A stretch of DNA of 64,000 nt. It comes from Antedon mediterranea. Its lineage: Eukaryota > Animalia > Echinodermata. The notes beneath the pieces are model-generated. The model worked only from the letters and a program-made list of their open reading frames with translations. It was not told the DNA's origin and did not search any database. The stretch covers positions 17,667,648 to 17,731,647 of the forward strand of contig NC_092673.1 in the NCBI RefSeq assembly GCF_964355755.1, read 5' to 3'. Position 1 is the first letter of the stretch. Every line of letters starts with the position of its first letter. The translations under genes were made by a program, and so were the position numbers. This document shows positions 863 to 40,197 of this stretch, piece by piece.

Positions 863-970
863 AATGATGACACTCTATTACATTCATATCTGAGTAGTGT
901 ATATCCACCTACCTTAGAAATAGTGACGTGTCTCATTCAGCATGGGACACAAGTAGCGTTGCAAAATAAG
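863..970 (+). CDS. Ankyrin cassette exon A1: NDDTLLHSYLSSVYPPTLEIVTCLIQHGTQVALQNK
   Basis: Acceptor ttcctttccAG, donor AAG/GTAAAT, 108 nt, phase 0-0; ankyrin-like T(P/L)LH...LEIV..LIQHG pattern. Confidence 0.8.
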
Positions 971-3900
971 GTAAATGTACAGGGATTTGCTAGTGTAATA
1001 GGCTAACATTATATAGATATGCTGAAGTAAACCATTCAATGAGAGAAAAAAGTAACCACATTAACAAAAATCAAATTTGATTAAAACAAACCAAATAAAA
1101 AAATAACTAAATAGTTATATATGATTTATGATAACTGATTTAAAGTGTACAAATCTTTAAGTTTCTTAATGAACAAAAAAATCTATTTTTGTTTATATAT
1201 TCAGTTATTAAATAACAATTATTGACAATGGTCTAATTAATTGTAAATATGAAATAAAATGGGACAACTACTAAACAACTAAAAATGTTTAGGTTAAAAA
1301 AATTAATAGAATCTGATTTTAATAAAAAAATAATTATTAATTAAAAACCTGCTCCCTCCCTTACCTTACAAAAAATGCTTCTGTCAGTCTATCCAGCTAA
1401 TTATAAACATGGCATTAAACTACATCTGGAGATCCGTTTCCAACCTAGGATCTTTTTGTGCAAACATTTTGCCACAAAATGAAGAGAAATGTAAACAATG
1501 TTTTGTTAGTTTTCAAAATCTAAATTGTGTGAGTAATGCAATTTAAAAAAGAAAGGCAATATGAAATTATTCTTTTCGAACTGAATGCTTTTAAGAAAAG
1601 TTCCGTCTCTTATCTTATGACTTTTTTTGAAAAATGAATTCTCGTTAAAATATAATATACTAGTAAGTGCTCACAGATGCTTTTTGAATACATAAACTTT
1701 GGTAAATAACTGAAAATTATACTGTACACAAGGCAAATAAATACAGATATGATGGAGATCTGATCCATGGTAATATATTATATTTTGTTTTCATTTATCA
1801 ATAATGATAATTAGGATTTTATCACATTATTTAGCAGTAATTGTTGTTGTTTGTATTAACAAAAAAACCCAATTTCACATATGTCTGTTGTCAGTTTATA
1901 AACTTCATGATTATGATTCCTTTTCAGGATGGTGACACCAGATCTGATCTATGTTAAGATATTCTATTTTGTTCTCATTTATCAATAGTTAACAATTAGG
2001 ATTATTTACCACATTATTTAGCAGCAAAAAACAATTTCACATAATGTTTGTTGTCATTATTTATAAACTCCATTATGATTCCTTTCCAGTATGGTGACAC
2101 TCCATTACATCCATATCTGAGGAGTGGATATACTGCACCTACCTTAGAAATAGTGACGTGTCTCATTCAGCATGGGGCACCAGTAGCATTGAAAAATAAG
2201 GTAAAGGGATTTGCTAGTGTAATAAGCTAACATTATATAGATCTGCTGAAGTAAACCATTTAATGAGAGAAAAAAGTAAGCACATTAACAAAAATCAAAT
2301 TTGATTAAAACAAACCAAATAAAAAAATAACTAAATAGTTATATATGATTTATGATAACTGATTTAAAGTGTACAGTTACCTATCATATAACATAAATCT
2401 TTAATTTTCTTAATGAACAAAAAAATCTATTTTTTTTATATATTCAGTCATTAATTAACAATTATTGACAATGGTCTAATTAATTGTAAATATGAAATAA
2501 AATGCGACAACTACTAAACAACTAAAAATGTTTATGTTAAAAAAATTAATAGAATCTGATTTTAATAAAAAAATAATTATTAATTAATAACCTACTCCCT
2601 CCCTTACCTTACAAAAAATGCTTCTATCAGTCTATCCAGCTAATTATAAACATGGCCTTAAACTACATCTGGAGATCCTTTTCCAACCTAGGATATTTTT
2701 ATGCAAACATTTTGCCACAAAAGGAAGAGAAATGTAAATAATATTTAGCCTTTAGTTAGTGGTTTCCAAAATTTAAAATGTTTGAGCAATGCAATTTAAA
2801 AAAGAAAGCTAGTATGAAATTCCTTTCAAACTGAAAATAATGATAATTAGGATTTTATCACATTATTTAGCAGTAATTGTTGTTGTTTGTATTAACAAAA
2901 AAAAACCCAATTTTCACATAATGTCTGTTGTCAGTATTTATAAACTTCATTATGATTCCTTTCCAGGATGGTGACACTCTATTACATTCATATCTGAGGA
3001 ATGATAGAATACCTACCTTAGAAATAGTGACTTGTCTCATTCAGCATGGGACACCATTAGCATTGCAAAATAAGGTAATGTACAGGGATTTGCTAGTGTA
3101 ATAAGCTAACATTATATAGATATGCTGTGGTAAACCATTCTATTTTGTTCTACTCATTTATTTATTAATAATGATAATTATGATTATTTACCACAATATT
3201 TAGCAGCAATTGTTGTTGTTTGTATTGAAAAAAAACAAACAATTTCACATAATGTCTGTTGTCAGTATTTATAAACTTTATTATGATTCCTTTCCAGTAT
3301 GGTAACACTCCATTACATTCATATCTGTGGAGTGTACATACACCTACCTTAGAAATAGTGACGTGTCTCATTCAGCATGGGGCACCAGTAGCATTGCAAA
3401 ATAAGGTATTGTACAGGGATTTGCTAGTGTAATAGGCTAACATTCTATAGATATGATGTGGTAAACCATTCTATTTTGTTCTACTCATTTATTAATAATG
3501 ATAATTATGATTATTTTACCACAATATTTAGCAGCAATTGTTTTTGTTTGTATTGACAAAAAAAACAAACAATTTCACATAATGTCTGTAGTCAGTATTT
3601 ATAAACTCCATTATGATTCCTTTCCAGAATGGTGACACTCTATTACATTACTGTCTGAGGAGAGGATATCCACCTACCTTAGAAATAGTGACGTGTCTCA
3701 TTCAGCATGGGACACCAGTAGCATTGCAAAATGAGGTAATGTACAGGGATTTGCTAGTGTAATAGGCTAACATTATATAGATCTGCTGAAGTAAACCATT
3801 CTATTTTGTTCTACTCATTTATTAATAATGATAATTATGATTATTTACCACAATATTTAGTAGCAATTGTTGTTGTTTGTATTGACAAAAAAAACAAACA

Positions 3901-6900
3901 ATTTCACATAATGTCTGTTGTCAGTATTTATAAACTCCATTATGATTCCTTTCCAGAATGGTGACACTCTATTACATTCATATCTGATGATTGGATACCC
4001 TACCTTAGAAATAGTGACGTGTCTCATTCAGCATGGGACACCATTAGCATTGCAAAATAAGGTAAATGTACAGGGATTTGCTAGTGTAATAGGCTAACAT
4101 TGTATAGATATGCTGTGGTAAACCATTCTATTTTGTTCTACTCATTTATTAATAATGATAATTATGATTATTTACCACAATATTTAGTAGCAATTGTTGT
4201 TGTTTGTATTGACAAAAAAAACAAACAATTTCACATAATGTCTGTTGTCAGTATTTATAAACTCCATTATGATTCCTTTCCAGAATGGTGACACTCTATT
4301 ACATTCATATCTGGGGACAGGATATACACCTACCTTAGAAATAGTGACGTGTCTCATTCAGCATGGGGTACCAGTAGCATTGCAAAATAAGGTATTGTAC
4401 AGGGATTTGCTAGTGTAATAGGCTAACATTCTATAGATCTGCTGAAGTAAACCATTTAATGAGAGAAAAAAGTAAGCACATTAACAAAAATCAAATTTTA
4501 TTAAAAGAAATCAAATTAAAATAATAACTAAACAGTTATATATGATTTATGATAACTGATTTAAAGTATACAGTTATTCATCAAATAACATATATCTTTT
4601 TTCTTAATGAACAAAAACAATCTACTTGTAATTTTTTATATTCAGGTGAATCACTATAATTTTGTTTAAATATTTTTACCATAAAATAAATATATATTGG
4701 TCATATCAGGGAGTTGTAAAATGACAACTCCCTGGTCATATGTAGCTGTAAAGATAACAACAATTGAAAATGGTCTAATTAATTATAAATATGAAATAAA
4801 ATGTATGTTGACAAATAATAGAATAGCAAACAAAAATGTTTGTGTTATTGTTAACAAAATTAATAGAATCTGATTTTAATAAAAAAGAATTATTAATTGT
4901 TAATAACTTGCTCCCTCCCTTACCTTCCAAAAAAATACTTCTGTCAGTATATCCAGCTAATTACAGTTTGAATATGGCCTTTTAAAGAGATCTTTTTCCA
5001 GCATTTTTTTTTTTTGCAAATATTTTGCCACAAATGGAAGAGAAATGTAAATAATGTTTAGTTTATAGTGGTTTCCAAAATCTAAAATTGTTCGAACAAT
5101 GCAATTAGACATTTTTTTATATTCAGGTGAATCAGTATAATTTTGTTTACATATTTTTGACCGTAAAACAAATATAAATTGGTCATATGTAGCTGTAAAG
5201 ATAACAATGATTGACAATGGTCTAATTAATTGTAAAGATGAAATAAAATGGGACAACTACATTGATTAATAATAAAATAACAAATAAAAATGCTTATGTC
5301 AAAAAAATTAATAGAATCTGATTTTAATAAAAAAATAATTATTAATTAATAACCTGCTCCCTCCCTTACCTTACAAAAAAATGCTTCTGTAATAGTAATA
5401 GGCTAACAATCTTTAGATCTGATCCATGGTAAGATATTCTATTTTGTTCTCATTTATCAATCATGTCAATTAGGATTATTGACCACATTATTTAGCAGTA
5501 ATTCTTGCTATGGTTTGGGTTGACAAAAAAAAACCCAATTTCACATAATGTCTGTTGTCAGTATTATACACCAACAACATTGCAAAATAAGGTAATGTAC
5601 AGGGATTTGCTAGTGTAATAAGCTAACATTATATAGATCTGCTGAAGTAGACCATTTATTGAGAGAAAAAAGTAAGCACATTAACAAAAATAAAATTTGA
5701 TTAAAACAAACCAAATAAAAAAATAACTAACTAGATTTAAACTCGTCACTACGGACGAGTTAGGTTATCCGCAGCGCAAAAGGCATGTGCACGTCATACG
5801 TTAGAATATTACGCGCAGAAAAACGTTTACGCCATTGAAAAAATGATAGTGCGCCCTCTATTTTGCGTCACGTCTGAGTATATACGGTATACACTATATA
5901 CTATATACGTATAACCATACAGTGCAGAATAGTGAAAAGAAGTGACCAAAGTTATTAACGCTTTTGAACATGATGACGTAATAACAATTTTAAAAATTGT
6001 AAATCATGCGAAAGATAATTGATTGACCTAAACAATATAAAAAATGGAGGGCAATGGAATACGGATAATTGGAGATGTGCTCTATTAAATGTGATGAGCT
6101 ATGACGAAAGAGACAAAAATCCTATTATTTATATTCGAGTGGCCATACGATGACGTCACAATGTCCGGTTAGTCATATTGATGCATGATTTGATATCTGC
6201 AACTCATCTACTACCAGAATATGTAATTTTAAAAAAGTTCACCACGTAGTTTAGAATTTATGACTGTTTAAAAAAAGGCATAATTTTGACAAATTTTTGA
6301 ACTTTTTCATCAAAAATGCGCGTAAATTGTTTAATTCTACGTGCTCGTATGACGTGATTTTAAGTCGAAATTGTTTGAAAGTTGGTAAATTTTCTAAAAA
6401 AGACAGGAAAAACAAAAATCAAGCAAAAAAATGATGTTTTTGCGCTACGTGCGCACGTGCGCGTAAAAAAATTGCGCACGCGTGGGAATTTTTGAAATGC
6501 TCAAAATGACATGAAACGCGTAGAAAGTTGATTAGATATTGATTTTTCGCATTTTGAAATTTTAAACGCGCGTAACTTTTTGTGAAACATGCCATTTTTA
6601 ATCCATAGAAAGTTTGCGCTTGATATGACTTAAAGTTTCACCAAGTTTCAATACAAAACGACTTTTAGTTTTTAATATATGATCAATCATTGAAATTCAT
6701 AAAATCGCGCGTAACTTACGCTGCGCGAATCAAAGTTCATAAAAAAAAGTTTCTTGCACATCTACAGCTACAGGGCTATCTTTTGACAAAGTTATACAAT
6801 CATATGTTGGCCAGAATTAGAGATACGCTGCGAACAAAATTCGTGGAAAGAAAGAAGAACATAGGAAAAAAATGGGTTATCCGCCAAGTGCGGATAACCA

Positions 6901-15900: not shown

Positions 15901-18900
15901 TGATTTTTCGTGGCAAGCCTTTTGTGTAAATTTCACAAATGTTTTGGATAAAGTTGCTCCTGTAAAAGAAGTCCGAATTAGACACTCTTCTCAGCCGTGG
16001 ATGACACCTGACATACTCAAAATTATTAAGGCCAGGGATATTTATCTTAATAAATTCAAAAGAACTCGTAATTTATTATATCGTACTGAATACTGTAAAC
16101 TTAGAAATCAGGTACAAAGAAATATAAAAGAAGCAAAGCAGACTCATTTTATTGACAAGATCAATACAAATCGACATAACCCTAAAAAGTTATGGAAGGT
16201 TATAAAAGATCTTGGGTATCAAAATAAACAAAATGAAACTGCTTCGATTACTCTTAAAATAAATGATAAACTATGTAGTGAGCCAAACATTATTGCCAGT
16301 CACTTTAACTCGTTTTTTACAAACGTAGCATCAGATCTGGTAAGAAAGCTCCCGCAAAGGTCATACCAATTTGATGTAAATTCTGAGAATTTTAAAAAAT
16401 ACTATGACGGTACTGACAAATTTTCCTTGCAACCTGTAAACAACGATATAGTTAAAAAGGAGATCTTGGGTCTCAGTATAAATAAAAGTACAGGTCTAGA
16501 TTGCATACCCACACGTTTTTTAAGGGATGCGTCCGAAATTATTGCAACTCCCATAACACGGATTATCAATTTCTCATTTGAAACGGAATGTTTTCCAAAT
16601 GAGATGAAATTGGCTCGTGTTCGACCAATTTACAAGAAAAAAAATAATCTTGAAACTGCTAACTATAGGCCTGTCAGTATACTGTCGGTGGTGTCAAAAA
16701 TTGTAGAAAAGATTGTTCACTCACAATTAAATGAGTTTTTGGAAAGGAACAAGCTTTTATATCGTTTTCAGTCTGGTTTCAGACAGTCCTTTTCAACAGA
16801 TCACTGTTTAATTCACTTGACAGACTTCATTAAAACTCAAACAGCGAAAGGGAAATTTACTAGTATCTTACTTATTGACATCCAAAAAGCTTTTGACTGC
16901 GTTAGTCATGACTTACTTTGTAAGAAACTCAGAAAAATTGGAATCGAATCTGTCAGCTGGTTTAAATCATATCTGGAATGTAGACATCAAACAGTCAATA
17001 TATTGGTGGGGCTGTTTCAGAGCCTTCAGAAATTGTATGTGGAGTGCCACAAGGGAGCATCCTGGGACCACTCCTGTTCCTCATCTACGTCAATGATATG
17101 CCTATGTCTGTCTCATCATTGTTAATGCAATATGCTGACGATAGTGCAATTGTCAATGCTCATCATGATCCTGATATTATCAGTAAAAATCTTGCTAGGG
17201 ATCTGTCTAATTGTAATAAATAGTTAATTGACAATAATTTATCACTTCACATGGGAAAAACTGAACTAATGTTGTTTGGTCCCAGGATGTCTCTCAAGAA
17301 CTACACAAATTTTAGCGTCCTTTACAATGGCTATACAATTTCTTTGAATAGCTCTATAAAATACCTTGGTATCGAACTAAGCAATAGGCTTAATAGTGAA
17401 TTAATTGTCTCAACAATTATTAAGAAAGTTAATGGTCATATTAAATTTGCGTATAGGAATTGTCGTAACTTTGATCGCTGTATTCGTAAACTCATAATGG
17501 AAGCCCTGGCTCTAAGCCATATAAATTATGCTATATCATCCTGGTACTGGGGTACAACCGCGGATTCCCGTACTAAACTTCAAAGAACACAAAATAAAGT
17601 AATTATTGTATTGTCTCATATATGGTACATCTGCAGCATTGCAAAATAGGGTAATGTAGGCTTACAAAGAATTGTCAGGACAATTTCACATTTTATTGTT
17701 ATCATGAGTATTTATAAACTTGAACTTCAGTATCAATTAGCCTCCATATTAATCAATAGTATTACTACCTCAACGAGCAGCATTATTTAATCAGACTTAC
17801 CGATATAGAATTCTCAAGTAAAAAATGTTTGATTGTTTTCACCTTTTTCTCTTTTTACACATAGCACATTCTAACAAGTTTGTTTTGATTTTGATATTCA
17901 TTTATAAGTCAACTATAATTGTAATGTGTTGTTGTTTTAATATTTCATTTGTATCTTGATAGTATCCAAATATTATTTGCTTTGAAAGTTTATTGTAAAA
18001 CTATTTGTTGTTTTATATTATGGCTCAAACATTTTAACACATTTACCTACTGTTCCAAAGTAAACTTTTATTCAATTTATCTCTCTCTCTCTTCCATCTT
18101 TCAATGTTGAAGGCGGTAGACTATAAACGGCAGCGCTTAAGTTTTGGTTTGGATACAGGAGTTATAGGTGGCGCACTGTACAAGTTGATGTCATTTATTG
18201 GCAAATAGTAATTTCTATTCACGTCCTAATTTACAACCAATGTTAAAAAATAGTAAAGCTACGTGTTATCACATGATGCTCTTTCATCCAATCTCTAGAT
18301 GGTAAATGTTTGAGCCATGACTGTATGTATGTGATGCGTATTAAAGTGTGTTATATTGTATATCAATAATTTCTCAAAAACTACTAATAGTAACTAAACC
18401 CATTTTTTAATAGGATGGAAATACACCTGTCTCTGTTTTAGAAAGTAACAGGTGGATAGGGCACAAGAGAAAAACTGAACTTTTAAACTTCTTTAAAAGT
18501 AAGTGAAGTTTTAATTATTAAAATTTTGGAATCAACTAGTTTTCATTACAAACGATAAAGATTTGATTTTTTGTCCCAAATGAAGAAGAATGTCCAGATA
18601 AAGAAAATTAACATTTATGATATCATTCACAGGTTCAGATGGCAATAGATTAAATAATCCACTGGGATTGTAGTAAACCATGGAGTAAAGAATAAGAGGA
18701 GGCACAACTCGGCCTAGCTATCCAGTTAATCCAATTAGTATCACGCTGTGCGGTAGTGCTTAAGCATAGGGTAATAAACTTCCCATAACGATCCTTTGAA
18801 GAACATCCTGTTTACCCGTGCAGCTCGCTGCAGAGTCGGCTCTGATTACGTAACACCCTAATTAAGGAAGAAGCCAGGCATGACATCGGTGACAAAAAAA

Positions 18901-21900: not shown

Positions 21901-24900
21901 ATATTGCATTCATATTTTGTTTCTTTTTATTCCCAACTTGTTGTTACTTTTTTCTGGGAGCCTAGGCTTAAAGTTTTATACTTTTAAGGTTTCCTTCCAC
22001 ACATACTATGTTTATTAATTATTATCTTACATGTTTATATAATTATTATTTTATGTATTTTTAATATGTGTGAAGAATATTTATTCAATATCTATTGAAT
22101 ATTGCATAAACGAATTGAATTGCAAATATTTATCCTTGGCTTGGTGTAGGCCTACTAAAAAAGGTTGAGAATACAGAACCAAAACTGATAGTAATGTATG
22201 ACAAAGTGAACAAACTTTTATAGTCTAAGGAACTTTCTTAGCCAATACATACAAGATTAAACCATTAGGTAAGAGTTCAAAATCTATTTCAAAGACCCAT
22301 CCCTACAATTTTCGACTTTTTGTAAAAATAATGCAATATTACTTTAAAAACATTAAACCAGGTTATTCCTTGTCTTATGTACGTTTTATGGTAAATTATG
22401 ATAAAATGAAAGAAACAATGCACTACCTAAGTAGCTCGCAGTTTATTTATTATTATAAAGTTGATTAAAATCATTAATAAACTTATATTTCTTCTCAACT
22501 TTCTGATCGTACCAGACGTAGCCATTGCCAGTGGAACAAAGCAAATCGTTCACTTGTTTAGCCCAACAATGTTCATTTCTATTAGTTTTTCTTAATTGAA
22601 ACATGTAACATTTAAAAGGAAATCTATTTTTATCTATTTCCATGATTTGTAACCAATAATGAATAATAGAAATAAAGCAATCAATGTTTAAGGATAGTCT
22701 GCCTAATTCTGATTTGACAGCCACGCTGGGTGCGCTGTTTCCAATGCCTAAATAAATCTTAAAAACGTGTATGTAAATGATCAATTGGTGATAAATTCGA
22801 AAAGCCCCATGTCTCACTCCTGTAAATTAAAATTGGTAAAACTTTGTCAAAAATGTGTTTCCATATATTCTCTGGTAGGTATTTTGTTTTGCTATTAATT
22901 GATTGTAAATAGTACGTACGTTATTTGCTTTTTGACAATTGTGTTCAATTGTGTTATTCCACTGACCATTTGAATTGAAAACCACTTCCAAGTAAGTATA
23001 CGATTTAACAACTTCCATTTTAATGTTTATGTAATACCATTTTTCATATTTTCTTAATTTTTCACCTTTTTTAAATACCATTATGTTTTATTTGTTTACA
23101 TTTACACCCATGTGTCACAAAATATTTCCAATATAATTATTAAATTTTGTAAGCCTTTACTGTGTCTACGAATAGTAATAAATCAGCAGCATATAGCAGA
23201 TGGTTTATAAAGCAATCCCCGAATGGTATTTTTTCGTTATTTTGATTTAGCTAGTAATTCATAAATATATTAAAGATGATGGCAGGGGTGACCCTTGTTG
23301 TATTCCAATTGAACATTCAAATAGGAGTGTTAATGAGTTTCCTATTTTTACATGCGCTATCAATTGGAAACTAAATAATATATATGACGTCATATATATT
23401 ATTATTTACACCTATTCTTCTTAATTTTAATAATAGAAAATTATGATTTGTACTGTCAAGTGCACGTTTTAGATCAACGAAGCAACAACATATTCTACCC
23501 CTATATTTTTGAATTATGCTGTTAAGAATTAAAATATTATCTAATGTGCGGAATCCCTTGCGAAAACCTGATTGTTCTTGTTAAATAATGTTATTGTTTT
23601 CAAGTATGGTTAGTTATTCTAGTGTTAAGGATGTTTAAAAATATTTTGCCAAGAATTGGAATTAGAGAAATGCCCCTATATTAAATACTAGGCTAGACTT
23701 ACCAAATATTTATTTTGTTTTCAAATTTAGCGCCAGCTGAACCGCTGCTTCAATAGGCTAAAATAGTCCTTGGCTGTACTGCTAATAACTAATTGTACTG
23801 TATATTCATTACATTGGTGGTGGGCGGGGGGCGGTGTTCTTCTAAACACCAAGCCCTTCAAAGTATAACTAAGCTCGACCAAGTGTATAAAGTGTATATT
23901 TTACAAAATATTTATATTATACAAACATTTAGAGTGTTAATTGCATTTTAAGCAATAAATACATTTAGAGTAATTATGACACATTGTACATTCTAGGCTG
24001 ATGTTTAAATTTTTTATTTTTTTACAATTAATATTTACAAAAGTGTAGCGTACACACATAATGGGGAACTAACGACTGGGGACAGTGGGCACGTTTTCTG
24101 AGCGTGCTTTAGTAGGACCACAAAAGCGCCCTTATTGTAAGCAAAATTGTTTGACATCAGCCTAAACCATGGTGGGGCTCGAGTTATCTTTATTGTGTTT
24201 TGACAAACAGGTATAAAAACAAAATTGGTTACTGGTCATAAAACAGAATATAAATAAAAACATTCAAAAAGTTCAAAGCATATTGAAAACTTACGATAGA
24301 TGTTTTTAATCGCATTTCCTACTGCCTAATTCTGAATCACACCAGTTATTCATTTCAGGATTACTTTATTTTCACTTTACCCATTGAAACCATGCTAATC
24401 AACTGTATGTTGCTAGAATTTCAACGATTTAGATTCAGGGTCGCTGTCAAAAAATGTTGCATAACGTCTATATGTTTAAATGAGTTTGAGTTCCACAATT
24501 TTTTTTAGGACATAATTTAAATTAATAACTGTAGTTGTTAACTGTATACATTGTAGTTAAAAATATACATTATTATTTATTATAGTATATTCAGAATGAA
24601 TGATTGCTTGTACACAGTCACCCACAAGTGTTTGTAAGGCTTTGTATCACACAGAGCCTTTATATATAACCTTATACCATTGAAACAAAAAAAAAGACTT
24701 TTAATATAGTGTTTTTTATGAAAATATATAATATGTAATATTTTTGTTTTGTGCATTTTTTTAGATTTACCAAGTACTACTGTTGAGCAATTTCAAACAC
24801 AATTTCAGAAACAGACAAGTGACAAACAGAAAACAAAACTTCTTAAGCCAGAGAGTGGTAAGTTTAAGAATAAGACCTGCTGTATGTTTTATGATTGTAT

Positions 24901-30900: not shown

Positions 30901-33900
30901 AAATTCTTTCCATGGTACTGCTTTATATAAATTGTTATTACAAATTTTGCCTACGTCAACAAAAAAAGGATTTTCAGTAACTGTTTTCAATCATAACTTA
31001 TTTTAATAGTGTTATATGAATTTGTACTAGAAAAATGCTTTAATATAAAGATTATCAATAGTAAATGTATAAACACAGTTTATAAAAAGACAATTAAAAT
31101 GATACTTATTTATTAAGCTTTAAAGCATATTAATCAAATATTTGAATAAAAACAAATTGTGTTTTTGCAGATGTTCATGACATTACAAGCACTTTATATT
31201 GTAGTGTTCGACCTAAGTGTAGACCTCAATGATCCTGCTGTTTATATTGATTCCAATGGAGTAAGTATTTTGCTATATATTTTATGCATTACAAAGAGTT
31301 TTATTTCATACCTTCCAAATGAGCTGCATAAATTTACATAATTGAAACCTAACCATTTTAATTGTGGTTAGAAATCATTTACTTCTTCATTTCATTTTAC
31401 TAGAACAAAGATAAAATGTTTTTTAAACTAGTCTTTCTTTTTTATAGCAAAAGTGTAAACATCATTGGACCAATCTCCAGTTCATATTATCTTACATCCT
31501 GTCAGTTTATTCTCATAGTCGTATTGTGGAAGAAGACGAGGAGGTTCACAAACCAACTATCCTTATTGTGGGTACACATAAGGGTAAGCTTGGTGAGACT
31601 GAAACAGAACAAAATGATGAGGTTTATAATTACATTATTAAAATTAGCAATCAATCAAGTATACAATTCTGTTCTAAAAGCTAATGTAAAGAAACTAGCT
31701 ACTAGAATACTGTATCGAATACATTCATATCAAAAGTTCTTATATGAATGTATTCTATACAGTACTCTAATAGGACTTGAAGTATTTAGATATTATTTAA
31801 AAGAAATGACAGTTTTTACCTCATGTTTTCATTTATTTAAATTGTTTACAACCAGACAAAGAAGGCCTTTAAAAAGATTCGAGATGCACTTAAACAGAAA
31901 GAGTTTATAAAACATGTGTACAACGTATATTTTGCCGTTGAAAACAGCCAAGAAACTACAGATAAGAGCTTTAGTAATCTCAAACAAGTTATTGATGACC
32001 TTATGACTGCTTTAGAGAAAGAAGTTCCTTTAAAGTGGATGCGTTTTCGATGTGATCTACATGATCTAAGGAGAAAAAAACATTTTTCTTTGTGTCCAGT
32101 TGAAGAGGTAAATTCAATTGGCATCATTCCTCAGTGTTTTGTTTTCAGAATAGAAATATGTTGGAAATAGTAGTATTTAAAAAGGTATAAACAAAAGACT
32201 CTACCCACTATTATAACTACAGTACTATATAATAATATTGATAATATTTTTGTCATATTTTCATCTTCACTGCTCTAAATCTGAATGGTAAAATAATGTT
32301 AATGTAATATAATATAAATAATCCTATCCATGCTGTTATGGTTTCCTATCTGAAAAAAATCATGAGAGCAATTACATCGGCCTAGTATTTTTTATGGAAT
32401 ATTTGCATTGCAACACTGACAATTACATTCTGTGAGAAAAATTGCAGTTACGTTTCCCCCATCCTTCAGATCCAAAGTTATGCAGTACATGTTATCAAGT
32501 AAATTTCAAAACATTTCGGGCTGTAAAGGACAAAACTAATGTTGTAAATGTATACCTACCTTTGGTTTCATATTTTTGATATTTTAGTTGTATCTGAATA
32601 GTAAACAATTTTTTCTTTAGCTCAAAATTCTGGCAAGTAAGAATGGTATTACAGATGAAAAAAAACAATCCTTTCTTCTAAACTTTTTGTACGATCTTGG
32701 TGAAATTGTTTACAGGCCTGACAACAAATTATTGAAAGATAAAGCGGTGTTAGATCCGATGCAGCTGGTTGAAATTGTTACTGCTTTTGTAACGGTCATT
32801 CCACCAGAATTTCCAGTAAGTAGTCTCATGAAAATGTTAATGCAGTGTTTTTTTAGGAAATAATTGAGGTACATTTGAATTCCTATAGGTGCTGTAGTAT
32901 CAAAAGCAATGTCTGACAGTTTCCTTAATTTAACATTGAGGGGTATATTGTATATTAGATGTAATTGCATCTACAAGTCTTTATACATGTGCATCCCTTT
33001 AGACTCTAATTGTTTGATAACTTTAAATAAACACAAAATACTAATTATGGCTAATTGGTGGTGTTTTTTAGCCGGCCACGTATATCGATGCGTTTGATAA
33101 GCTTGACAAGGGCATACTGGAAGAAAAGTTGTTGCAAAAATTATGGAAAGAGCGTAAAGTTGACGACGGAAAGAATTTTGAGTTCCTTGTAGCACTGATG
33201 ATTCAATTAGGTTTCATTTGTGAGAGGAAGACAACCAGCAGCCAAGATGTGGCAAGTACATCTACAGTAGGTTTTATTCAGTTATCTTTTCTAACATGTT
33301 TTTTATGCAAGATTATGAAAAAGAAAAAAAAAATTGTTATGATACATACATAATTGGTGAAATTTTACATAAAATTTCAAAATAATTGTAGGGTTATGAC
33401 ATATCTTGTTTGATCTATCTACTGAAAGATGTTTCCAACATGTACAGGATATGATATTTAATTTTCTAAAAGAAATCTGAATGCCATTTTACAAATCAAC
33501 CATTTCAGGAATTTGTTGGAAAGCGATCATTCTTTGTGCCACTACGTCTTGCTTTCAAGACATCAAGTGAAGTAAAACCAGTGCCTGATGATTCACAATC
33601 TATCAGTATCTATTATGACTTTAAGGGATATCTGCCAGATGTATTGTTTCCATATATGATTATTGATTTCCTCAACAAATTTCAAAAGAAAGGAGTTGAC
33701 CCAATACTGTCATATAATCATGCTGAACTTGACTTCGACCAAGATCATGATGTGACTTTATCTCTTGTCAAATTCATAACTAAGGAAGATGAAAGAAAGT
33801 TCTTGTTAAAGGTACTGTATCATAAAATTTGAATTTGAATAAGTCATAATTTATTCTAAGCATAAACTCAATTAAAATATCAAAACATCATGTTTCTTCT

Positions 33901-36900
33901 TTTTTTAGGTGACTATTAAAAGAACTCCTGCTTGTAATGAAACAAGTAATGATGAACCCTCTTCTGAAGCATGCAAAGAGGTTTGTTCATTTCAGTTTGG
34001 AGAACTATATATTTTTTTTATAGATGTTTTGGTTGATATTGAGGTTGTTATAATATTACATATAGTTTAAAATAATTTAAACATTTAAAATAGGGTGTCA
34101 TCTTAATTTGTATTTTACTTTGTAATTCTTTAGATTGGTTTAGTTTTCAATAATAAATAACACCTAAGCCCACTATTGCTAAGATCTATCATTTATAAAG
34201 TTAAAACTTTATTGATTTCATTATATATATATATAATATAACATTGATTAGTAACAATTGATATAAAAACATCTTTAAAATTAAATTATAAAATGATTTT
34301 AATATAATATCAATTTAAAGTACAAGAAACTTAAAGTACAGTTGTCAAAAACTAGTTGTGATTGACTTTTTTAATATATAACATTAATTAATAACAAATG
34401 ATTTATAAAAACGTCTTCAAAAATTCACTAGATTTGTATTTTAGATATTTATTTTATTTGTTGTTGTTTTAGTTTTCCCTTTTATTGTATTGTAAATTTT
34501 TAGTGAACACAACATTTTAAGAATTTGTGCTACTGATTCAAAGTTGCTACATTAAGTATGTGTTTAATTGTCATATAGTGTTAATTGCAGTTTGCCAATT
34601 TATATTTCTAGGTTTTGTTAACGATCCAGAAGTCATTTGCACCTTCTAAAGATGGTGGTAGAAGAGGGATTCAATTTGAGAGATGCATACTTTGTGATGT
34701 ATGTAGTGATGCATCAGAAAAGAAGCACATTCTAAATCTTGAAGATTTCCAGTATAGAAAGTTAAAATGCACCAAAACTGGCAAGTCTGTTACGATGGAT
34801 GTTACACGTTACAAGCGGCTATTTGTAGGTAAGAGTAATATATATACAAGTTTATTTTCATTTATTTATTTGACCAATAACAATAAACTGAATGAACAAA
34901 ATGATTATTATGTAATTTAATTAAACAAACACATACAAATTATTAAATATCTTCATTCCTCTAATACCAGTAGTAGTACTATCATAATCATTATTGATAA
35001 TCTATACATTGTTACAACATGCTGCTATTAGCTTTGATATCTTCAATCCTCTTACCAGTAGTAGTACTAGTAGAATCATTATTGATAATCTCTACTTAGT
35101 TAAAATATTAAAATATTAACAATCTATTTGTTGATGTCAAGATAGTTAAAATTTAAAAATGTGAATGTTGGAGGTTCAATATTATAAAACTATTTATTTT
35201 TTTTATTTGACAAGAGTTTAATATGTTGGCTGTTAAGTTTGAACCTCATTAGGATGCAACACAAGAATGTAGGCACAACAAGTAATTTGACCAATGACAA
35301 GTGAATAAGCTCAGATGAGCTGTGCATTGCATCTGGGTGTGCATCCATGAGATACTTTGCTGGACCCAATGGTGTCCACTTACAGGAGATTCAACTAATA
35401 TTTTTTATTTTATTTGCAGATGAAACAGAAAAAAAGAGAAGAAATTCAGATCAAGGTAATTGATTGAAATAAGTAGATAAGTTTTGCAAAATGTTGTACT
35501 TTTATGGACTCAATGATATTTAATTATAATAAAGTATTTGCCTTTGTTAATGCTGTGCTGCCCTCAATGTCGATTATTTGGATCTCTAGGATGCAACACA
35601 AGAACGTAGGCACAACAATAGTAATTTGACCAATGACAAGTGAAGGATTGGATAAGCTCAGATGAGCTGTCGCTTGTTGTAGATTACTCGCATGGCAATT
35701 TCATCTTTGTGTCTCAAGTGATTATAGTTAAACATGGTATGCAGTGCTCCTCCTCTCCCTTAACAAACACTTAATTGATACTATCAGCTGAATCTGTCAT
35801 AAGTAGACACTTTTATAAGCAGATACTTTTCTGGACCCAATGGTGTCCACTTACAGAAGGTTCAACTAGTGTAATATTTTTCATTTTATTTGCAGATGAA
35901 ATTGGAAAGGGAAGAAAAAGAAGAAAAACAGACCAAGGTGATTGAAATATTATATATCAGATAAATAGATTATTTAAAAAAAAATTTAAATTGTACCTAT
36001 GTTTTACTTTTATGGATGATAATTATAACATGGGTTCAAGGATGTACAGTAGCCAATCAGATGCGCTGAAATGAATCCCATGGCGCTCTTTATTTTTTCA
36101 CTATCATGCACTGAAGTGGAAAAAGTTCCCAGCTAAAAAGCATAACACCACTGCGTGTAAATCATATGGCAGAGTATTACCGATCGTGCTAGGCATTGTA
36201 CCATTTTCTAGGCTAGGCGGTAATTTGGTCGGCAAGCAAAGTGGTGATTGCTGCTCCCTAGGCCTTGTCGGTGATTTGGTTGCCGAGCAGAGTGGTGATA
36301 ATAATTCACAGACCCATGTTGTAAAACAAATAACGCACAATTCTAAGTTTGTGCGTTACTGGAGATGCAACGCACTCTCTGGTATTAAAAATGTTGTGCA
36401 ACATACACCATTGTAAATACCCTCAAGTTTGCCGCATCTCCTCTAACGCACAAATTTAGACTTGTGCGTTTATTTGTATAATAAATTATTTGTCTTTGTT
36501 AATATCAATGAATGTTATTTTAGCATAAGATGGGTACTATGATTTATTCAGTGCATACATGTTCTAGAAATGGATATGTGTATATGGCACGTCATTGTGA
36601 GAGTCTAACAAATACGCAGAGTATTTATATTATAATATCATGGACTTATAAAGCTCTGTATGTTGTGAAACCTCTCAAAGCGCTGATCATACAGTAGAAA
36701 CTGAGGGAAAAAATTAAACCCAAACCTAAGTATGTGATATGCCCTTGCAATGTGTGACTTGGCCCGTCATCCCCGACTCAAGTGCTTCCTACTCTAGTAA
36801 AGACAATATAACTATAACAAGATATCAAATTTATATTCATGAAAGTGTTTTGGTATTGCGACTCGTAAACAAGCTTAAATTTGGTAAATCACCAGGTGAA

Positions 36901-39635
36901 GATGGTATAACTTCTACTATGCTCAAGATAACTGCTACATTTATTGCTGAGCCGCTTTCAAAATTGTTTAATTTATCCCTCTCAACCGGTACCATTCCCA
37001 ATGACTGGATGAAGGTCAACGTAATTTCTTTCCATAAATGAATTGGTATAGAAAATTTTAAGTAGCAAATTTATATTAATGGTGGTTTTCATCGCTGTTG
37101 GTTTTGATCGAATAATAAAAATTAAAATGATGAAGGAAATAACAGAATGTGATGATGATCTAAAACACTTCAATAGTTTATAAAATACATTGCTGCTTTT
37201 ATTATAACATTTGAACATGTGATAATGTGCTGTTGTGTTGGCAATATAGAATTTGTATAGCATCCATTGAATTCATTTCATTTCATTCATATTTTTCATC
37301 AAAAAAAAAAATTATAAAACATGTAAAGATATAATGCATAAAAGATGAAAAGGATCAACAACAAAAAGCTAAAAGCTTGTACAGGGTTGAAGACCTAAAA
37401 CAGCTAATAATATAATAGGAAATATACAATATATTAAAATATATATATAAAGTAACATTATTTCATTATTGTGTATTTTATTTGTTACAGATGATGTGGG
37501 GACAAGTTCAAATCAAGGTATGTTATATTAGGCCTATGTGTCGCTAATGTGATGTGCCCACATATGGACATGATGATGTCATATCACTACCATATTTGGG
37601 TATATCACTCATATTTGGGCACATCACACTTTTTATGTCAAACAAGTTTGATAGTGTATTAGTAATGCACTACTTTCTTAATGATCAAATCTCAATCATC
37701 CAGTGTAAAAGTGCCATGTATATAAACAAATACTAACATACTTTAAACATATACTTCTCATTTTTATCATTTTTAGGCAGTAGTGATGAGGATGAAAGAG
37801 AAGGAACATCACGGAGTCACCAACAAAGTGAAGGTAAGATACTAGTAGATAGAGATAGTGATATTGTGATGATAAGTCCTTAATTTTAATTGTTTAATAA
37901 ACCAAAACTTTCCACATATAGCCAAGTCTAGAATGACACACATGTGACTGTCTAATTTTCCAGAATTTACAATATTAAGTATTCCAACGTTGACAGTAGC
38001 TTCATATTTGTTTTGAACTTGACCCGAACCTGACATTATTCCACAAATATTTTTATTTTGAAATAGTAGAGTGGAGAGAGAAAATAAAACAAATTTAATA
38101 CTGTTTACTGTTTTACATTTTGTTGATATTCTATACTGATGATTAAGTAAAAATTTATTTTGATTTTTGAGTGGGTACAATAATGATCACTGTCAAATGA
38201 ATGTCCTGTCATTTTATTTGCAGACAACAAGACAATTGCAGGATCGAAAACTTGCGACAATTTCCAAGACCTAAAAGCTGGCCTCAGTGGTTGCTTTGAT
38301 GGCGAAAGATATCGTTGGCTAAGGTTCCTACTATTTGATAAGTTGGATGTCGGTGAAATTACAAATCAAGATTTCAATGGACATGACTTACTTAATGTAC
38401 TTGAAGCTAAAGGTTTAATCTTATCAACCAATGTTAATTTGCTGTTGGAGATTACAAAGTTATCAGATATCAAATATGCCAAAGATCTTGTATCAAAGTA
38501 TATGAGAGACAACGATCAGTTTAGAAATACTGATAAAACCAAGTTGTCGTCTTACAGAAAGCGGCTGTTTAAAGCCCTGAAACAAGTTGACCCACGTGCA
38601 TTACGTAATGTTATATCTTTCTACAAGTTAAGAAGATATAGCTTCTCCAATGTTTGGGATGCAGTTCTCTATCTGGAGATTCAGCAATTATTAGCAGATG
38701 ATCCAGACAAAATAAATCGGTTTGCAGATCGTCTCGGCACAATAGCAAGTAACACACTACTTGGTATGCATTTCTACTTTATATTATATTAAGTTTTTTG
38801 TATTGTTATTGAATCATTCATTTTTTTTAACAGTTTACGTAATTGTAATTTGATTAAAAAATATTTGGTTTCATTTTATTCATTAAAATTTTACATTAAC
38901 TGATTATTTATAGGCAATAGTGAGAAGAAATGAGACAGCATCATCAAGTCACCAATGTGAACAAAGTGAAGGTAAATTATTCAGTAAAGTTGGGAGATAA
39001 ACATAAAAAATGAAGATCATATATGATTATAATATGATTAAGATAATATTGACATAGAAGTTGGTGATATTGAGGATGATATTACTCTAAAATTTAGGAT
39101 TTATAATACACAGAATATAATAATGTAGATTATTATTATAGCAATAAAATAATAAGAGTGAGTAGTGTTTTTGTAGTTGTTTCTAAAGCTCAAATAATGA
39201 TGATTATTAAACAATACTTATAACAATGCTGAATTTATTACTTGAAATTTGAAAATGATTTTGTGGTTTTTCATGAATTTTTATTCATAAATCTTAAAAC
39301 AGTAATTATGATAAGAATGCTATCTACTGAATTTATTACAAGAAATTGGAAATGATTTTGTGGCGTTCCAGGAATTATACTGCAAACTTATTCAAATAAT
39401 GATTATGATTTCAACAATATTTATGATGCTATCTACTGAATTTATTACATTGGAAAATATTGTGGTGTTTTATGAATTTATATTCATTATTCATAATCTT
39501 AAAAAAACAATTACAATTTCCACAATAATCATGATAACTGTTATACTAAATTGATTGATACTGTTTTTCATCCGTATAGATCTCTCAGAGGATGATGAAG
39601 ACTTAAGTCACAGACTTAGTCCAACGATGCAATAA
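863..39635 (+). CDS. Gene A (5'-incomplete, multi-exon): Roco-family protein with variable ankyrin-repeat array - C-cap - Roc GTPase - COR - Cys/His motif - basic/acidic linker - tandem DED
   Basis: 12 intact phase-0 ankyrin exons, then 21 GT-AG exons (18414..39635) that join in one open frame of 987 aa with consistent phases. Motifs: P-loop GQEGVGKT, TDGI, WDHGGQ, VGTHK; COR VPLKW and FLYDLGEI; DED-like LSSYRKRLF. Confidence 0.85.
1928..1940 (+). pseudogene. Truncated ankyrin exon remnant (acceptor plus DGDT only)
   Basis: attccttttcAG GAT GGT GAC ACC is joined directly to intron-unit sequence agatctgatc; no donor. Confidence 0.65.
2090..2200 (+). CDS. Ankyrin cassette exon A2: YGDTPLHPYLRSGYTAPTLEIVTCLIQHGAPVALKNK
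   Basis: 111 nt, AG/GT, phase 0-0. Confidence 0.85.
2967..3074 (+). CDS. Ankyrin cassette exon A3: DGDTLLHSYLRNDRIPTLEIVTCLIQHGTPLALQNK
   Basis: 108 nt, AG/GT, phase 0-0. Confidence 0.85.
3298..3405 (+). CDS. Ankyrin cassette exon A4: YGNTPLHSYLWSVHTPTLEIVTCLIQHGAPVALQNK
   Basis: 108 nt, AG/GT, phase 0-0. Confidence 0.85.
3628..3735 (+). CDS. Ankyrin cassette exon A5: NGDTLLHYCLRRGYPPTLEIVTCLIQHGTPVALQNE
   Basis: 108 nt, AG/GT, phase 0-0. Confidence 0.85.
3957..4061 (+). CDS. Ankyrin cassette exon A6: NGDTLLHSYLMIGYPTLEIVTCLIQHGTPLALQNK
   Basis: 105 nt, AG/GT, phase 0-0. Confidence 0.85.
4284..4391 (+). CDS. Ankyrin cassette exon A7: NGDTLLHSYLGTGYTPTLEIVTCLIQHGVPVALQNK
   Basis: 108 nt, AG/GT, phase 0-0. 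Confidence 0.85.
4707..4734. mobile_element. 28-bp inverted-repeat insertion with 7-bp target-site duplication (probable DNA-transposon footprint)
   Basis: gtcatat-CAGGGAGTTGT-aaaatg-ACAACTCCCTG-gtcatat; the homologous empty site ggtcatatgtagctg is at ~5181. Confidence 0.7.
5568..5591 (+). pseudogene. Internally deleted ankyrin exon (acceptor and 5' three-quarters lost, donor kept)
   Basis: gtcagtattat joined to acaccaacaacattgcaaaataag/gtaat; the same lesion occurs at ~12225-12247 and ~59585-59608. Confidence 0.7.
5731..6899 (-). mobile_element. Non-autonomous Helentron/DINE-1-like (HINE) element, family 1
   Basis: Subterminal inverted repeats GGTTATCCGC/GCGGATAACC, terminal hairpin then CTAG, inserted in an A/T run with no long TSD; empty site aataactaaatagtt at ~1102. 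Confidence 0.7.
7742..8953 (+). mobile_element. HINE family 1 element (inverted relative to 5731-6899)
   Basis: 5' hairpin ggttatccgcacttggcggataacc; 3' gcggataacc-aactcgtc-cgtagt-gacgagtt-caaat-CTAG; empty site in the duplicated segment at ~14397. Confidence 0.75.
9421..9531 (+). CDS. Ankyrin cassette exon A8: DGDTLLHSYMRNVYRISTLEIVTCLIQHGTPVALQNK
   Basis: 111 nt, AG/GT, phase 0-0. Confidence 0.85.
10305..10412 (+). CDS. Ankyrin cassette exon A9 (duplicate of A3)
   Basis: 108 nt, same sequence as 2967-3074. Confidence 0.8.
10632..10739 (+). CDS. Ankyrin cassette exon A10 (duplicate of A4)
   Basis: 108 nt, same sequence as 3298-3405. Confidence 0.8.
10962..11069 (+). CDS. Ankyrin cassette exon A11 (duplicate of A5)
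   Basis: 108 nt, same sequence as 3628-3735. Confidence 0.8.
11291..11398 (+). CDS. Ankyrin cassette exon A12 (duplicate of A7)
   Basis: 108 nt, same sequence as 4284-4391. Confidence 0.8.
12387..13555 (-). mobile_element. HINE family 1 element (segmental-duplication copy of 5731-6899)
   Basis: Near-identical to 5731-6899 with the same flanks. Confidence 0.75.
14776..14869 (+). pseudogene. Ankyrin exon A13 (DGNTPLHVYFRRSRLIPTLKIVTFLIQHG...) interrupted by a LINE
   Basis: Intact acceptor, one extra G in the GGGG run, then LINE sequence. An ankyrin-type 3' end with donor (gcattgcaaaatagg/gtaat) reappears at ~17612-17649. Confidence 0.75.
14870..17605 (+). mobile_element. Non-LTR retrotransposon (CR1/L2-like) pseudo-ORF: partial PHD finger, APE endonuclease, reverse transcriptase; truncated at both ends
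   Basis: FHASC..WCCHLC; HVNARSL, ETHL, YRPP, SDH; QSGFR, DIQKAFD, GVPQGSILGPLLF, YADD. In-frame TAG at 15758 and 17221; frameshift near 17001. Confidence 0.92.
18414..18498 (+). CDS. Gene A C-terminal capping ankyrin exon DGNTPVSVLESNRWIGHKRKTELLNFFK
   Basis: Phase 0 to 1; DGNTP half-repeat; AG and GTAAGT sites. Confidence 0.75.
18678..20973. mobile_element. Non-autonomous DNA transposon with terminal inverted repeats (unclassified)
   Basis: ccatggagtaaagaataagaggaggcacaact ... agttgtgtctcctcttattctttaacatgg. Confidence 0.65.
22440..23700 (-). mobile_element. Heavily degraded LINE reverse-transcriptase fragment
   Basis: Minus-strand EQSGFRKGFRTLDNI-like and YAADLLL-like motifs, plus C-terminal SELGRLSL-like ORF pieces, with many stops. 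Confidence 0.7.
24765..24857 (+). CDS. Gene A linker exon (LPSTTVEQFQTQFQKQTSDKQKTKLLKPES)
   Basis: 93 nt, phase 1-1, polypyrimidine AG and GTAAGT. Confidence 0.7.
25164..26075 (+). mobile_element. HINE family 2 element (internally deleted)
   Basis: 5' aggttatatgca; 3' tgcatataacc-aattcgtca-tag-tgacgaatt-CTAG; similar to 43694-45020. Confidence 0.7.
26142..31621 (+). CDS. Gene A Roc GTPase exons: 26142-26289, 26586-26671, 26998-27062, 28275-28347, 30594-30751, 31171-31260, 31448-31621
   Basis: G1 GQEGVGKT, G2 TDGI, G3 FNIWDHGGQ, ALYIVVFDL, G4 IVGTHK; phases 1-2-1-0-1-0-0-0 join without stops. Confidence 0.88.
27140..28059. mobile_element. MITE with ~38-bp TIRs flanked by TA
   Basis: cgcccgtattcttaaaccggactttagtcgtagttcga ... 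tcgaactacgactaaagtctggtttaagaatacgggcg; a related single end lies at ~46299. Confidence 0.8.
29116..29952. mobile_element. PIF/Harbinger-like MITE
   Basis: TIR agcccctttctcacaga / tctgtgagaaaggggct with TTA on both flanks. Confidence 0.8.
30352..30535. repeat. Degenerate (AAT/GAT/AAC)n low-complexity tract
   Basis: Repeated aatgatgac / aacaatgat motifs. Confidence 0.6.
31856..34828 (+). CDS. Gene A Roc C-terminus and COR exons: 31856-32107, 32621-32815, 33072-33266, 33509-33811, 33909-33980, 34612-34828
   Basis: FAVEN, EVPLKW, LNFLYDLGEI, VLDPMQL, GILEEKLLQKLW, LMIQLGFI, FFVP, LPDVLF, then CILCDVC...H...C; canonical splice sites, open frame. Confidence 0.85.
35420..37833 (+). CDS. Gene A phase-1 micro-exons: 35420-35455 (DETEKKRRNSDQ), 35896-35937 (DEIGKGRKRRKTDQ), 37491-37517 (DDVGTSSNQ), 37777-37833 (GSSDEDEREGTSRSHQQSE)
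   Basis: Each has a strong acceptor and an AAG/GT donor; lengths 36, 42, 27 and 57 nt. Confidence 0.65.
36800..37037 (+). mobile_element. Short LINE (CR1-like) RT-region fragment
   Basis: KSPGEDGITSTMLK...IAEPLSKLFNLSLSTGTIPNDW, typical of the LINE RT N-terminal region. Confidence 0.75.
38224..38763 (+). CDS. Gene A tandem death-effector-domain-like exon (180 codons)
   Basis: LRFLLFD..DLLNVLEAKGLI..NVNLLLEI..DLVSKY, then LSSYRKRLF..WDAVLYLE, resembling caspase-8/cFLIP-type DED1-DED2; phase 1-1. Confidence 0.7.
38914..38971 (+). CDS. Alternative, frameshifted exon giving the C-terminus GNSEKK* (TGA 38931-38933)
   Basis: 58 nt, paralogous to exon 37777-37833; AG and GTAAAT sites. Confidence 0.55.
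39580..39635 (+). CDS. Gene A terminal coding exon DLSEDDEDLSHRLSPTMQ*
   Basis: Acceptor ttttcatccgtatAG, phase 1, TAA at 39633-39635. Confidence 0.6.
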
Positions 39636-39799: not shown

Positions 39800-40197
39800 A
39801 GTATCCCCTGAATAGGGGTGTCCTAAAGAAGGGATTTACTCCAGTAGTAAAGAGGAGGGGTGTGTCCCCTGAATAGGGATGTGTCCCCTGAATAGGGTTG
39901 TCTTAAAGAAGGGGTTTGCTCCAGTAGTAAAGAGGAGGGGTGTGTCCCCTGAATAAGGGTGTCTTAAAAAAGGGATTTACTCCAGTAGTAAAGAGGAGGG
40001 GTGTGTCCCCTGAATCTGGATGTGTCCCCTGAATAGGGGTGTCCTAAAGAAGGGGTTTACTCCAGTAGTAAAGAGGAGGGGTGTGTCCCTTGAATAGGGA
40101 TGTGTCCCCTGAATAGGGGTGTCCTAAAGAAGGGGTTTACTCCAGTAGTACAGAGGAGGGGTGTGTTCCCTGAACAGGGGTATGTCCCCTGAATAGG
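39800..40197. repeat. Minisatellite with 80- and 61-bp units (includes a 19-bp subrepeat) in the putative 3' UTR
   Basis: ccagtagta recurs at 39841, 39921, 39982, 40062 and 40142. Confidence 0.9.

Follow-up and report, generated by a model that had tools for sequence, protein, structure and literature searches.

A 64,000-nucleotide stretch of the genome of the crinoid Antedon mediterranea (NC_092673.1, positions 17,667,648 to 17,731,647; here called the window) carries a gene, gene 1, in which an array of single-repeat ankyrin exons (cassettes) precedes exons for a C-terminal ankyrin cap (C-cap), a Roc GTPase domain, a COR domain, and a likely tandem death effector domain (DED). A second gene with a like array, gene 2, follows downstream. 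Our reading, which we hold with a probability of about 0.6, is that gene 1 belongs to an expanded crinoid ROCO family and is likely an intracellular sensor of non-self, with an ankyrin domain built from N-cap, cassette, and C-cap exons. It is a real animal, ankyrin-based parallel of the exon-shuffling ROCO genes of brown algae, probably diversified in the germline with some exon skipping.

A search with one cassette unit recovered 17 intact cassette exons and several fragments in the window, every match on the + strand (Table 1). All 17, twelve in gene 1 and five in gene 2, have AG/GT ends, are 105, 108, or 111 nt long, and are open; 13 of these sequences are distinct, as are 8 of the twelve in gene 1. 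Every exon is of phase 0-0 with a length divisible by three, and Tandem Repeats Finder gives a unit period of 324 to 330 bp. The initial annotation of this DNA, made from the sequence alone, had counted at least 12 intact phase 0-0 cassettes of 8 sequences plus decayed copies, proposed a minimal unit of about 330 bp, and held that any subset of cassettes keeps the frame. These claims agree with the exon ends, frames, and lengths found here, with the caveat that four of the twelve cassettes are exact copies within a recent duplication of ~5.5 kb. Pfam Ank is matched by three of the four cassette exons scanned (E 7e-5 to 3e-3), cassette 863 being the one without a match. Decayed copies lie at 1928, 5568, 12224, and 14776/17611 in gene 1 and at 59585 in gene 2.

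From the C-cap exon at 18414, 20 exons with AG/GT ends remain open through 975 codons and stop at codon 976, in the exon at 38914; with the twelve cassettes joined to this core, the frame is uninterrupted to residue 1409. The C-cap exon ends in phase 1 and the linker exon begins in phase 1, and no remnant of a Roc domain of the other cassette-bearing subtype (subtype A) lies between the C-cap and the window's own Roc, which is of subtype B. Roc stands directly before COR, as in ROCO proteins: the window exons match Pfam Roc and COR, the close paralogs P0013 and P0006 match Pfam Roc and COR-A above the cut-off, and close paralogs match solved Roc-COR structures in PDB. The P-loop, the switch I threonine, and the DxxG motif (G1 to G3) are present in the window's Roc exons and in the paralogs. 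Pfam finds no NACHT or NB-ARC domain in the paralogs, so these are not proteins of the NLR/STAND type.

The C-terminal module of 179 residues is likely a tandem DED. Its first half has a weak Pfam DED match (E 0.0018), and its second half, in a structure model with a predicted local distance difference test score (pLDDT) of only 68, aligns over 70 residues to the caspase-8 DED (Z 7.5, root-mean-square deviation 2.2). The top Foldseek rows for the module are all tandem DEDs, the best at E 0.075 and probability 0.97, with no DED match at E<=0.001. The exon is 100% identical to P0001 of Antedon mediterranea, the annotated model at the locus, and 12 of 12 hits come from this species. The proposed order of a C-cap exon and a Roc-COR-tandem-DED core is thus upheld by the open frame over 20 exons and by the Roc, COR-A, and DED matches, and the profile check that had been suggested returned Ank, Roc, COR, and, weakly, DED. 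The feature had been extended to 39635, which does not stand: the annotated protein stops in the exon at 38914, and only skipping of that exon moves the stop to 39635, in a possible alternative last exon. Among the paralogs, the short phase 1-1 linker exons (35420-37833 and 38914-38971), some of them duplicated, occur in different subsets; this side observation suggests that the region between COR and DED may be a second modular region.

The start codon and N-cap exon of gene 1 do not lie in the 64-kb window, and those of gene 2 do. They were revealed by paralog N-termini, which gives the gene plan as N-cap, n cassettes, C-cap, Roc-COR, and DEDs. With its own N-cap exon and five cassettes within 57193-63964, gene 2 is the second gene with a like array that had been claimed downstream. 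Gene 2 and the paralogs begin with an ankyrin N-cap and not with the N-terminal kinase domain of DAPK.

To place the cassettes within the family, 7992 candidates were scored with a cassette profile, giving 103 hits and 9 Antedon clusters. Of the nine Antedon models with cassette repeats, five include Roc, and two of those five have DED as well; one more has a partial Roc, and the other three are ankyrin-only. Most annotated cassette models hold 2 to 4 repeats, and one holds 8. The predicted model P0019 has two cassettes, a C-cap and linker like those of the window, and the same Roc subtype. At the window locus, the link from cassettes to Roc is predicted from the reading frame and from such gene models. 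A structure model of the annotated paralog P0017, comprising the N-cap and three repeats, reaches a pLDDT of 86.5 and a TM score of about 0.78 to designed ankyrin repeat proteins (DARPins).

Four public sequencing runs were compared, X1, guessed to be RNA, and X2 to X4, which are DNA-like. Mapped on one unit, three X1 contigs carry a joint from 4389 to 4282 that goes back 108 nt; two letters fit both sides, which places the joint at the exact exon ends, 4391 to 4284. Such a joint of cassette exon end to start is absent from runs X2 to X4. Loose contig ends in X1 match the end of a cassette, the N-cap exon's end (by visual comparison, 24 of 29 letters agree with window 49604-49632), and the start of the next cassette or of a paralog's C-cap. 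Exact cassette-cassette and N-cap-cassette junctions therefore exist in X1 at the level of the family, not assignable to this locus, and cassette genes are expressed at that level. Calculated by hand, the X1/X3 depth ratio is 0.10-0.13 at three exon sites and about 0.02 at three sites in introns; for the C-cap exon it is 0.11-0.13, versus 0.02-0.03 beside it. Because the depth of contigs is an unreliable measure, we rely on the junctions. A truncated paralog has two annotated isoforms, P0119 and P0027, between which the difference is exactly one repeat of 36 residues; isoforms annotated by NCBI are based on transcript evidence. The earlier claim that cassettes are spliced in any subset to the Roc-COR core thus stands for cassette splicing, expression, and one annotated single-cassette skip in a paralog, and for the Roc part it comes from frame and models only.

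The array changes by whole units. The block at 2205-7738 (~5.5 kb) recurs from 9542 on, differing at 9 of 4852 nt (99.8% identity), and the duplicate lacks exactly one 327-nt unit, that of cassette 3957; the cassette at its left edge also differs. Deletion and duplication of units, as initially proposed, are both visible here. A false duplication by the assembler is a less likely origin of the duplicate, which spans window positions 9.3-14.4 kb, because the copies differ by two deletions in addition to the 9 substitutions. The 13 distinct cassettes yield 45 informative site pairs, of which 24 do not pass the four-gamete test. This is a sign of recombination or conversion, although recurrent mutation can add to it.

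The hypervariability ascribed to the cassettes proves to be focused on one surface. Variation peaks at residues 1, 3, 5, 8, and 11-12 and in the length-variable loop that follows, and the helix-2 framework is conserved, with nonsynonymous differences per site (pN, 0.027) below synonymous ones (pS, 0.093). In the six exons after compact introns, diversity is 0.27 at the seven codons whose counterparts vary between DARPin repeats, compared to 0.038 elsewhere in these exons and 0.021 in the six compact introns (10 alleles in 183 columns), making the binding-face codons ~13 times more diverse than the neighboring introns. The frame is kept in all 17 intact exons, and none of the five intron gaps is a multiple of three. 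Many other letters occur at the variable patch 4314-4326 in all four runs, indicating that the pattern is not peculiar to the assembly. That the flanks are homogenized and divergent tips retained is well supported; selection on the binding face is likely, not proven.

To trace the origin of the family, a profile-free search with P0013 returned 2515 proteins; among the 150 listed, ten were examined, including crinoid and amphioxus proteins of the ordinary ANK-Roc-COR form, whose tails are Death, DED, or HEPN domains. A long loop between the helices is already present in the last internal repeat of these ordinary proteins, and the cassette is therefore likely an amplified copy of that repeat. 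Only 10 Antedon models among all proteins searched score above 39 bits with the cassette profile, the next best scoring 25. In a tree of 31 Roc-COR pieces, cassette-bearing proteins fall into two well-separated clades, and P0029 has one Roc-COR of each, suggesting a transfer of the cassette module from one ROCO subtype to the other, unless the P0029 model is a fusion. As annotated, P0029 reads as cassettes followed by two Roc-COR units of different clades, and it is either a tandem intermediate or a fused prediction. Proteins P0120 to P0265 hold Roc-COR and tandem-DED modules of the crinoid type in many architectures (KIX/TAZ, ZU5, Macro, HEPN, and multiple DED pairs), and this variety suggests a wider expansion of conflict genes.

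We infer the functional steps as follows. A cytosolic sensor would bind its ligand through the variable ankyrin face and pass the signal on through the Roc-COR switch to the tandem DED, which would recruit caspase-8/FADD-like partners and nucleate a platform. Roco proteins cycle between monomer and dimer in a nucleotide-dependent way (PMC6337361), and the GTPase class is fused to variable repeats and effectors in counter-invader systems (PMC8195603). Diversity would most likely arise in the germline, where unequal crossover would add or remove whole ~330-bp units, gene conversion would homogenize introns and framework, and selection would keep binding-face codons and loop lengths different; occasional exon skipping would add isoforms. 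Splicing to Roc at this locus and the immune role are likewise inferred, as are selection, ligand binding, and DED signaling.

Several observations weigh against this reading. The annotated model P0001 starts inside COR, and ankyrin repeats are found in none of the 15 family models first recovered through DED. Many of these 15 begin at internal methionines, and P0012 places its DED piece before Roc, so that they look fragmentary. X1 is RNA by guess only, covers introns too, and is a single sample; its cassette-to-C-cap loose end resembles a paralog's cap, not the window's, and no C-cap-to-Roc junction, nor any other splice junction, is among the 15 of 392 joints listed (11250-31240, with introns covered in the four runs). 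The G4 motif lacks the usual aspartate in the window and in all 11 subtype-B domains checked, and the residue is present in four of four subtype-A Roc domains. The nucleotide specificity of subtype-B Roc may thus differ from that of subtype A and need not be for GTP; Roco G4-G5 motifs are known to vary (PMC6337361). Approximate Fisher tests against the introns, with p 6e-8 for the seven-codon set and 1e-4 for all nonsynonymous sites, take sites as independent that are not, and the surface set was chosen with the alignment already in view. The excess of nonsynonymous over synonymous variation is not significant, either overall (alleles 40:7 versus sites 75:24, p=0.10) or in the surface set (p=0.22, binomial). 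Transposons sit inside the array. The orphan acceptors at 1928 and 14776 must be skipped, and the window allele may be partly impaired.

Some of these points would be expected of a neutral or decaying tandem array, with units amplified by recombination drive and cassettes unlinked from a working core. Five decayed cassettes, the LINE (long interspersed nuclear element) and Gypsy-type insertions, the split annotation, the very young duplication, and the non-significant nonsynonymous test fit this view. However, the 17 intact exons keep frame despite their length variation, the framework is conserved with the binding face ~13-fold above introns, the core runs without a stop for 975 codons, and spliced junctions exist, so we consider decay improbable. 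A Dscam-like splicing library, in which most mRNAs would use few cassettes, chosen combinatorially to give each animal or cell many receptors per gene, deserves somewhat more credence but is still unlikely. Any subset would be in frame, the units have near-identical splice sites, one single-cassette skip is annotated, models hold mostly 2 to 4 repeats and in one case 8, and brown-algal ROCO genes show such splicing (PMC11378527). Yet only that one skip is seen, in a truncated paralog; the contig joints in X1 do not identify which cassettes are joined; mutually exclusive splicing left no sign, though none was looked for; and the short models could be fragments left by the annotation.

That cassettes are rearranged somatically or undergo targeted hypermutation in immune cells, as in lamprey variable lymphocyte receptors (VLR), is very improbable. 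The idea has been proposed for Ectocarpus ROCO genes (PMC3341825), and, as expected under patchwise conversion, the variable patch also differs at synonymous sites (2 alleles in 3 sites). The cassettes, though, are sense-oriented, complete exons within a gene, no empty acceptor locus or signal sequences were noticed in the window, no somatic recombinants are reported in the available text on algae (PMC11378527), and germline processes explain what is seen. The same mechanics could also serve a non-immune role, such as allorecognition, gamete recognition, or a death switch in stress or autotomy: fungal NLRs with diversified ANK, WD, or TPR repeats are mainly known from allorecognition (PMC4986451, PMC13449251), and in algae, stresses of other kinds elicit a response from many ROCO genes (PMC11378527). 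Against this stand the cytosolic appearance of the predicted proteins and the repeated gene duplication with surface diversification, a combination typical of host-pathogen conflict, and we regard such a role as a slim prospect. The fuller proposal of a natural DARPin library, in which combinatorially spliced hypervariable ankyrin exons and germline copy-number change would yield in each feather star a large repertoire of intracellular receptors coupled through Roc-COR to DED-driven cell death, is doubtful, if a little easier to credit than any of the alternatives above.

Table 1. Features of genes 1 and 2, in window positions.
Feature	Position	Strand	Support or remark
Gene 1 ankyrin cassette exon 1, 108 nt, phase 0-0	863..970	+	AG/GT ends, open frame
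Decayed cassette, acceptor intact, otherwise 5' fragment only	1928..1938	+	unit search
Ankyrin cassette exon 2, 111 nt	2090..2200	+	frame, splice sites, Pfam scan
Five cassettes, compact ~330-bp units	2967-3074, 3298-3405, 3628-3735, 3957-4061, 4284-4391	+	frame, repeat period, run X1 exon joint
Decayed cassette, 3' fragment with donor	5568..5591 (copy 12224-12247)	+	unit search
Cassette in recent duplicate, distinct sequence	9421-9531	+	frame, splice sites
Four duplicate cassettes	10305-10412, 10632-10739, 10962-11069, 11291-11398	+	same as 2967, 3298, 3628, 4284; no copy of 3957 unit
Broken cassette: 5' part, decayed LINE, 3' fragment with donor	5' part 14776-~14872; 3' fragment ~17611-17650	+	unit search, Pfam; LINE with reading frames for endonuclease and reverse transcriptase
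C-cap exon, phase 0-1, single copy in window	18414..18498	+	matches P0019 residues 76-104 at 66%
Linker exon	24765..24857	+	97% to P0012
Roc exons	26142-26289 (P-loop), 26586-26671, 26998-27062, 28275-28347, 30594-30751 (switch II), 31171-31260, 31448-31621 (G4), 31856-32107	+	frame, Pfam, paralogs, PDB
COR exons	32621-32815, 33072-33266, 33509-33811, 33909-33980, 34612-34828	+	frame, Pfam, paralogs
Four short linker exons, phase 1-1	35420-35455, 35896-35937, 37491-37517, 37777-37833	+	present in P0001
Likely tandem DED exon, 540 nt	38224..38763	+	Pfam, structure model, Foldseek
Last coding exon up to stop	38914..38933	+	as in annotated P0001
Possible alternative last exon	39580..39635	+	in frame if 38914 is skipped; supported by frame only
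Gene 2 start-codon exon end, donor at 47898	47890..47897	+	frame; resembles paralog N-termini
Gene 2 ankyrin N-cap exon, phase 2-0	49539..49632	+	found from paralog N-termini
Gene 2 cassettes	57193-57297, 59834-59941, 63203-63313, 63536-63640, 63860-63964	+	frame, splice sites
Gene 2 decayed cassette fragment	59585-59608	+	unit search
Gypsy-type retrotransposon fragment in gene 2 intron	~60025-63048		Pfam

Other repeats are found in and around the two genes. The decayed LINE (14852-17649) and the Gypsy-type fragment lie one in each array, both broken by stops or frameshifts. An element of ~1.2 kb, present in high copy, occurs three times within the gene 1 array (5722-6893, 7801-8963, and 12378-13549), two of them oppositely oriented; the copies lie near the edges of the duplication. 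Contigs that skip 12263-17940 and 18675-20967 are present in all four runs, pointing to other alleles or paralogs without the LINE-bearing segment and without a later insertion. Just downstream of gene 1 is a compound 19/61/80-bp repeat (39804-40197), and the intron after the gene 2 N-cap holds a 71-bp minisatellite (~38 copies, 95% matches; 49738-51437 and 52527-53512) split by an insertion with 88-nt inverted ends.

Dscam and lamprey VLR are built of modular cassettes capable of giving combinatorial receptors; the Antedon cassettes are likewise modular, with no mutually exclusive choice or somatic assembly shown. Among ROCO proteins, DAPK1 has ankyrin repeats. A member of ROCO group 3, it shares the order of Roc-COR followed by a death-fold domain, and lacks leucine-rich repeats (LRR) (PMC6337361), but it is a conserved single gene, and the Antedon proteins have no kinase and a tandem DED in place of the death domain. 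Ordinary ANK-Roc-COR proteins (P0131 and P0188 of Anneissia, P0158 of Antedon, and P0222 of Branchiostoma) share the domain order and the long inter-helix loop before a similar C-cap, whereas their repeats are divergent and not near-identical cassettes.

The closest likeness is to the LRR-ROCO genes of the brown algae Ectocarpus and Saccharina (PMC3341825, PMC11378527), in which single-repeat exons precede Roc-COR, the number of repeats varies, dead exons lie between live ones, units recombine, the binding face is diversified, splicing is alternative, and the family is expanded. The window shares with them symmetric exons of one repeat each N-terminal to Roc-COR, gain and loss of units, recombination, and non-coding copies. 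It differs in belonging to an animal and in having ankyrin exons of variable length (105-111 nt) where the algal genes have the fixed 72-nt type I LRR exon, as well as exons dedicated to the N- and C-caps and a C-terminal tandem DED; the unit search found no inverted cassettes in the window. The window genes work like the brown-algal exon-shuffling ROCO receptors, but they are not LRR genes. Fungal NLRs with ANK repeats (Podospora; PMC4986451) also have near-identical repeats, repeat-number polymorphism, concerted evolution, and variable sites on the inner helix and hairpin; in contrast, they have a NACHT/NB-ARC ATPase, an N-terminal effector, and C-terminal repeats, and one exon per repeat is not described in the available parts of that source. 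DARPins resemble the Antedon proteins in their N-cap, self-compatible internal repeats, C-cap, and variable hairpin and inner-helix residues (PMC8683736, PMC8229355), whereas the Antedon cassettes, known from sequence and models, are natural and have 35-37 residues per repeat and a variable loop between helices. The label 'natural DARPin' given in the initial annotation thus fits the fold and part of the variable sites, and not the most variable stretch, which includes a length-variable inter-helix loop that DARPins lack.

In Aplysia, Roc-COR is fused to TIR proteins (PMC9334734), and the available text of a paper on placozoan immunity (PMC6321704) makes no mention of Roc. We found no description of ankyrin-cassette ROCO genes in animals in the open-access library searched, consistent with the earlier impression that this version is undescribed; subscription papers and supplements outside that scope may list the architecture. 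If the natural-library proposal were true, such a system would have arisen independently of the brown-algal LRR-ROCO genes, Dscam, and VLR. Here a lineage distant from brown algae shows their arrangement of single-repeat exons before Roc-COR, built on another kind of repeat. In its plan of cap, repeats, and cap, with a variable loop between the helices, the ankyrin domain forms a natural counterpart to the engineered DARPins. The locus offers a compact case for how invertebrates diversify receptors, be it by germline shuffling, splicing, or somatic change, and it suggests that animals have, besides NLRs, an overlooked class of diversified intracellular sensors in their ROCO GTPases.
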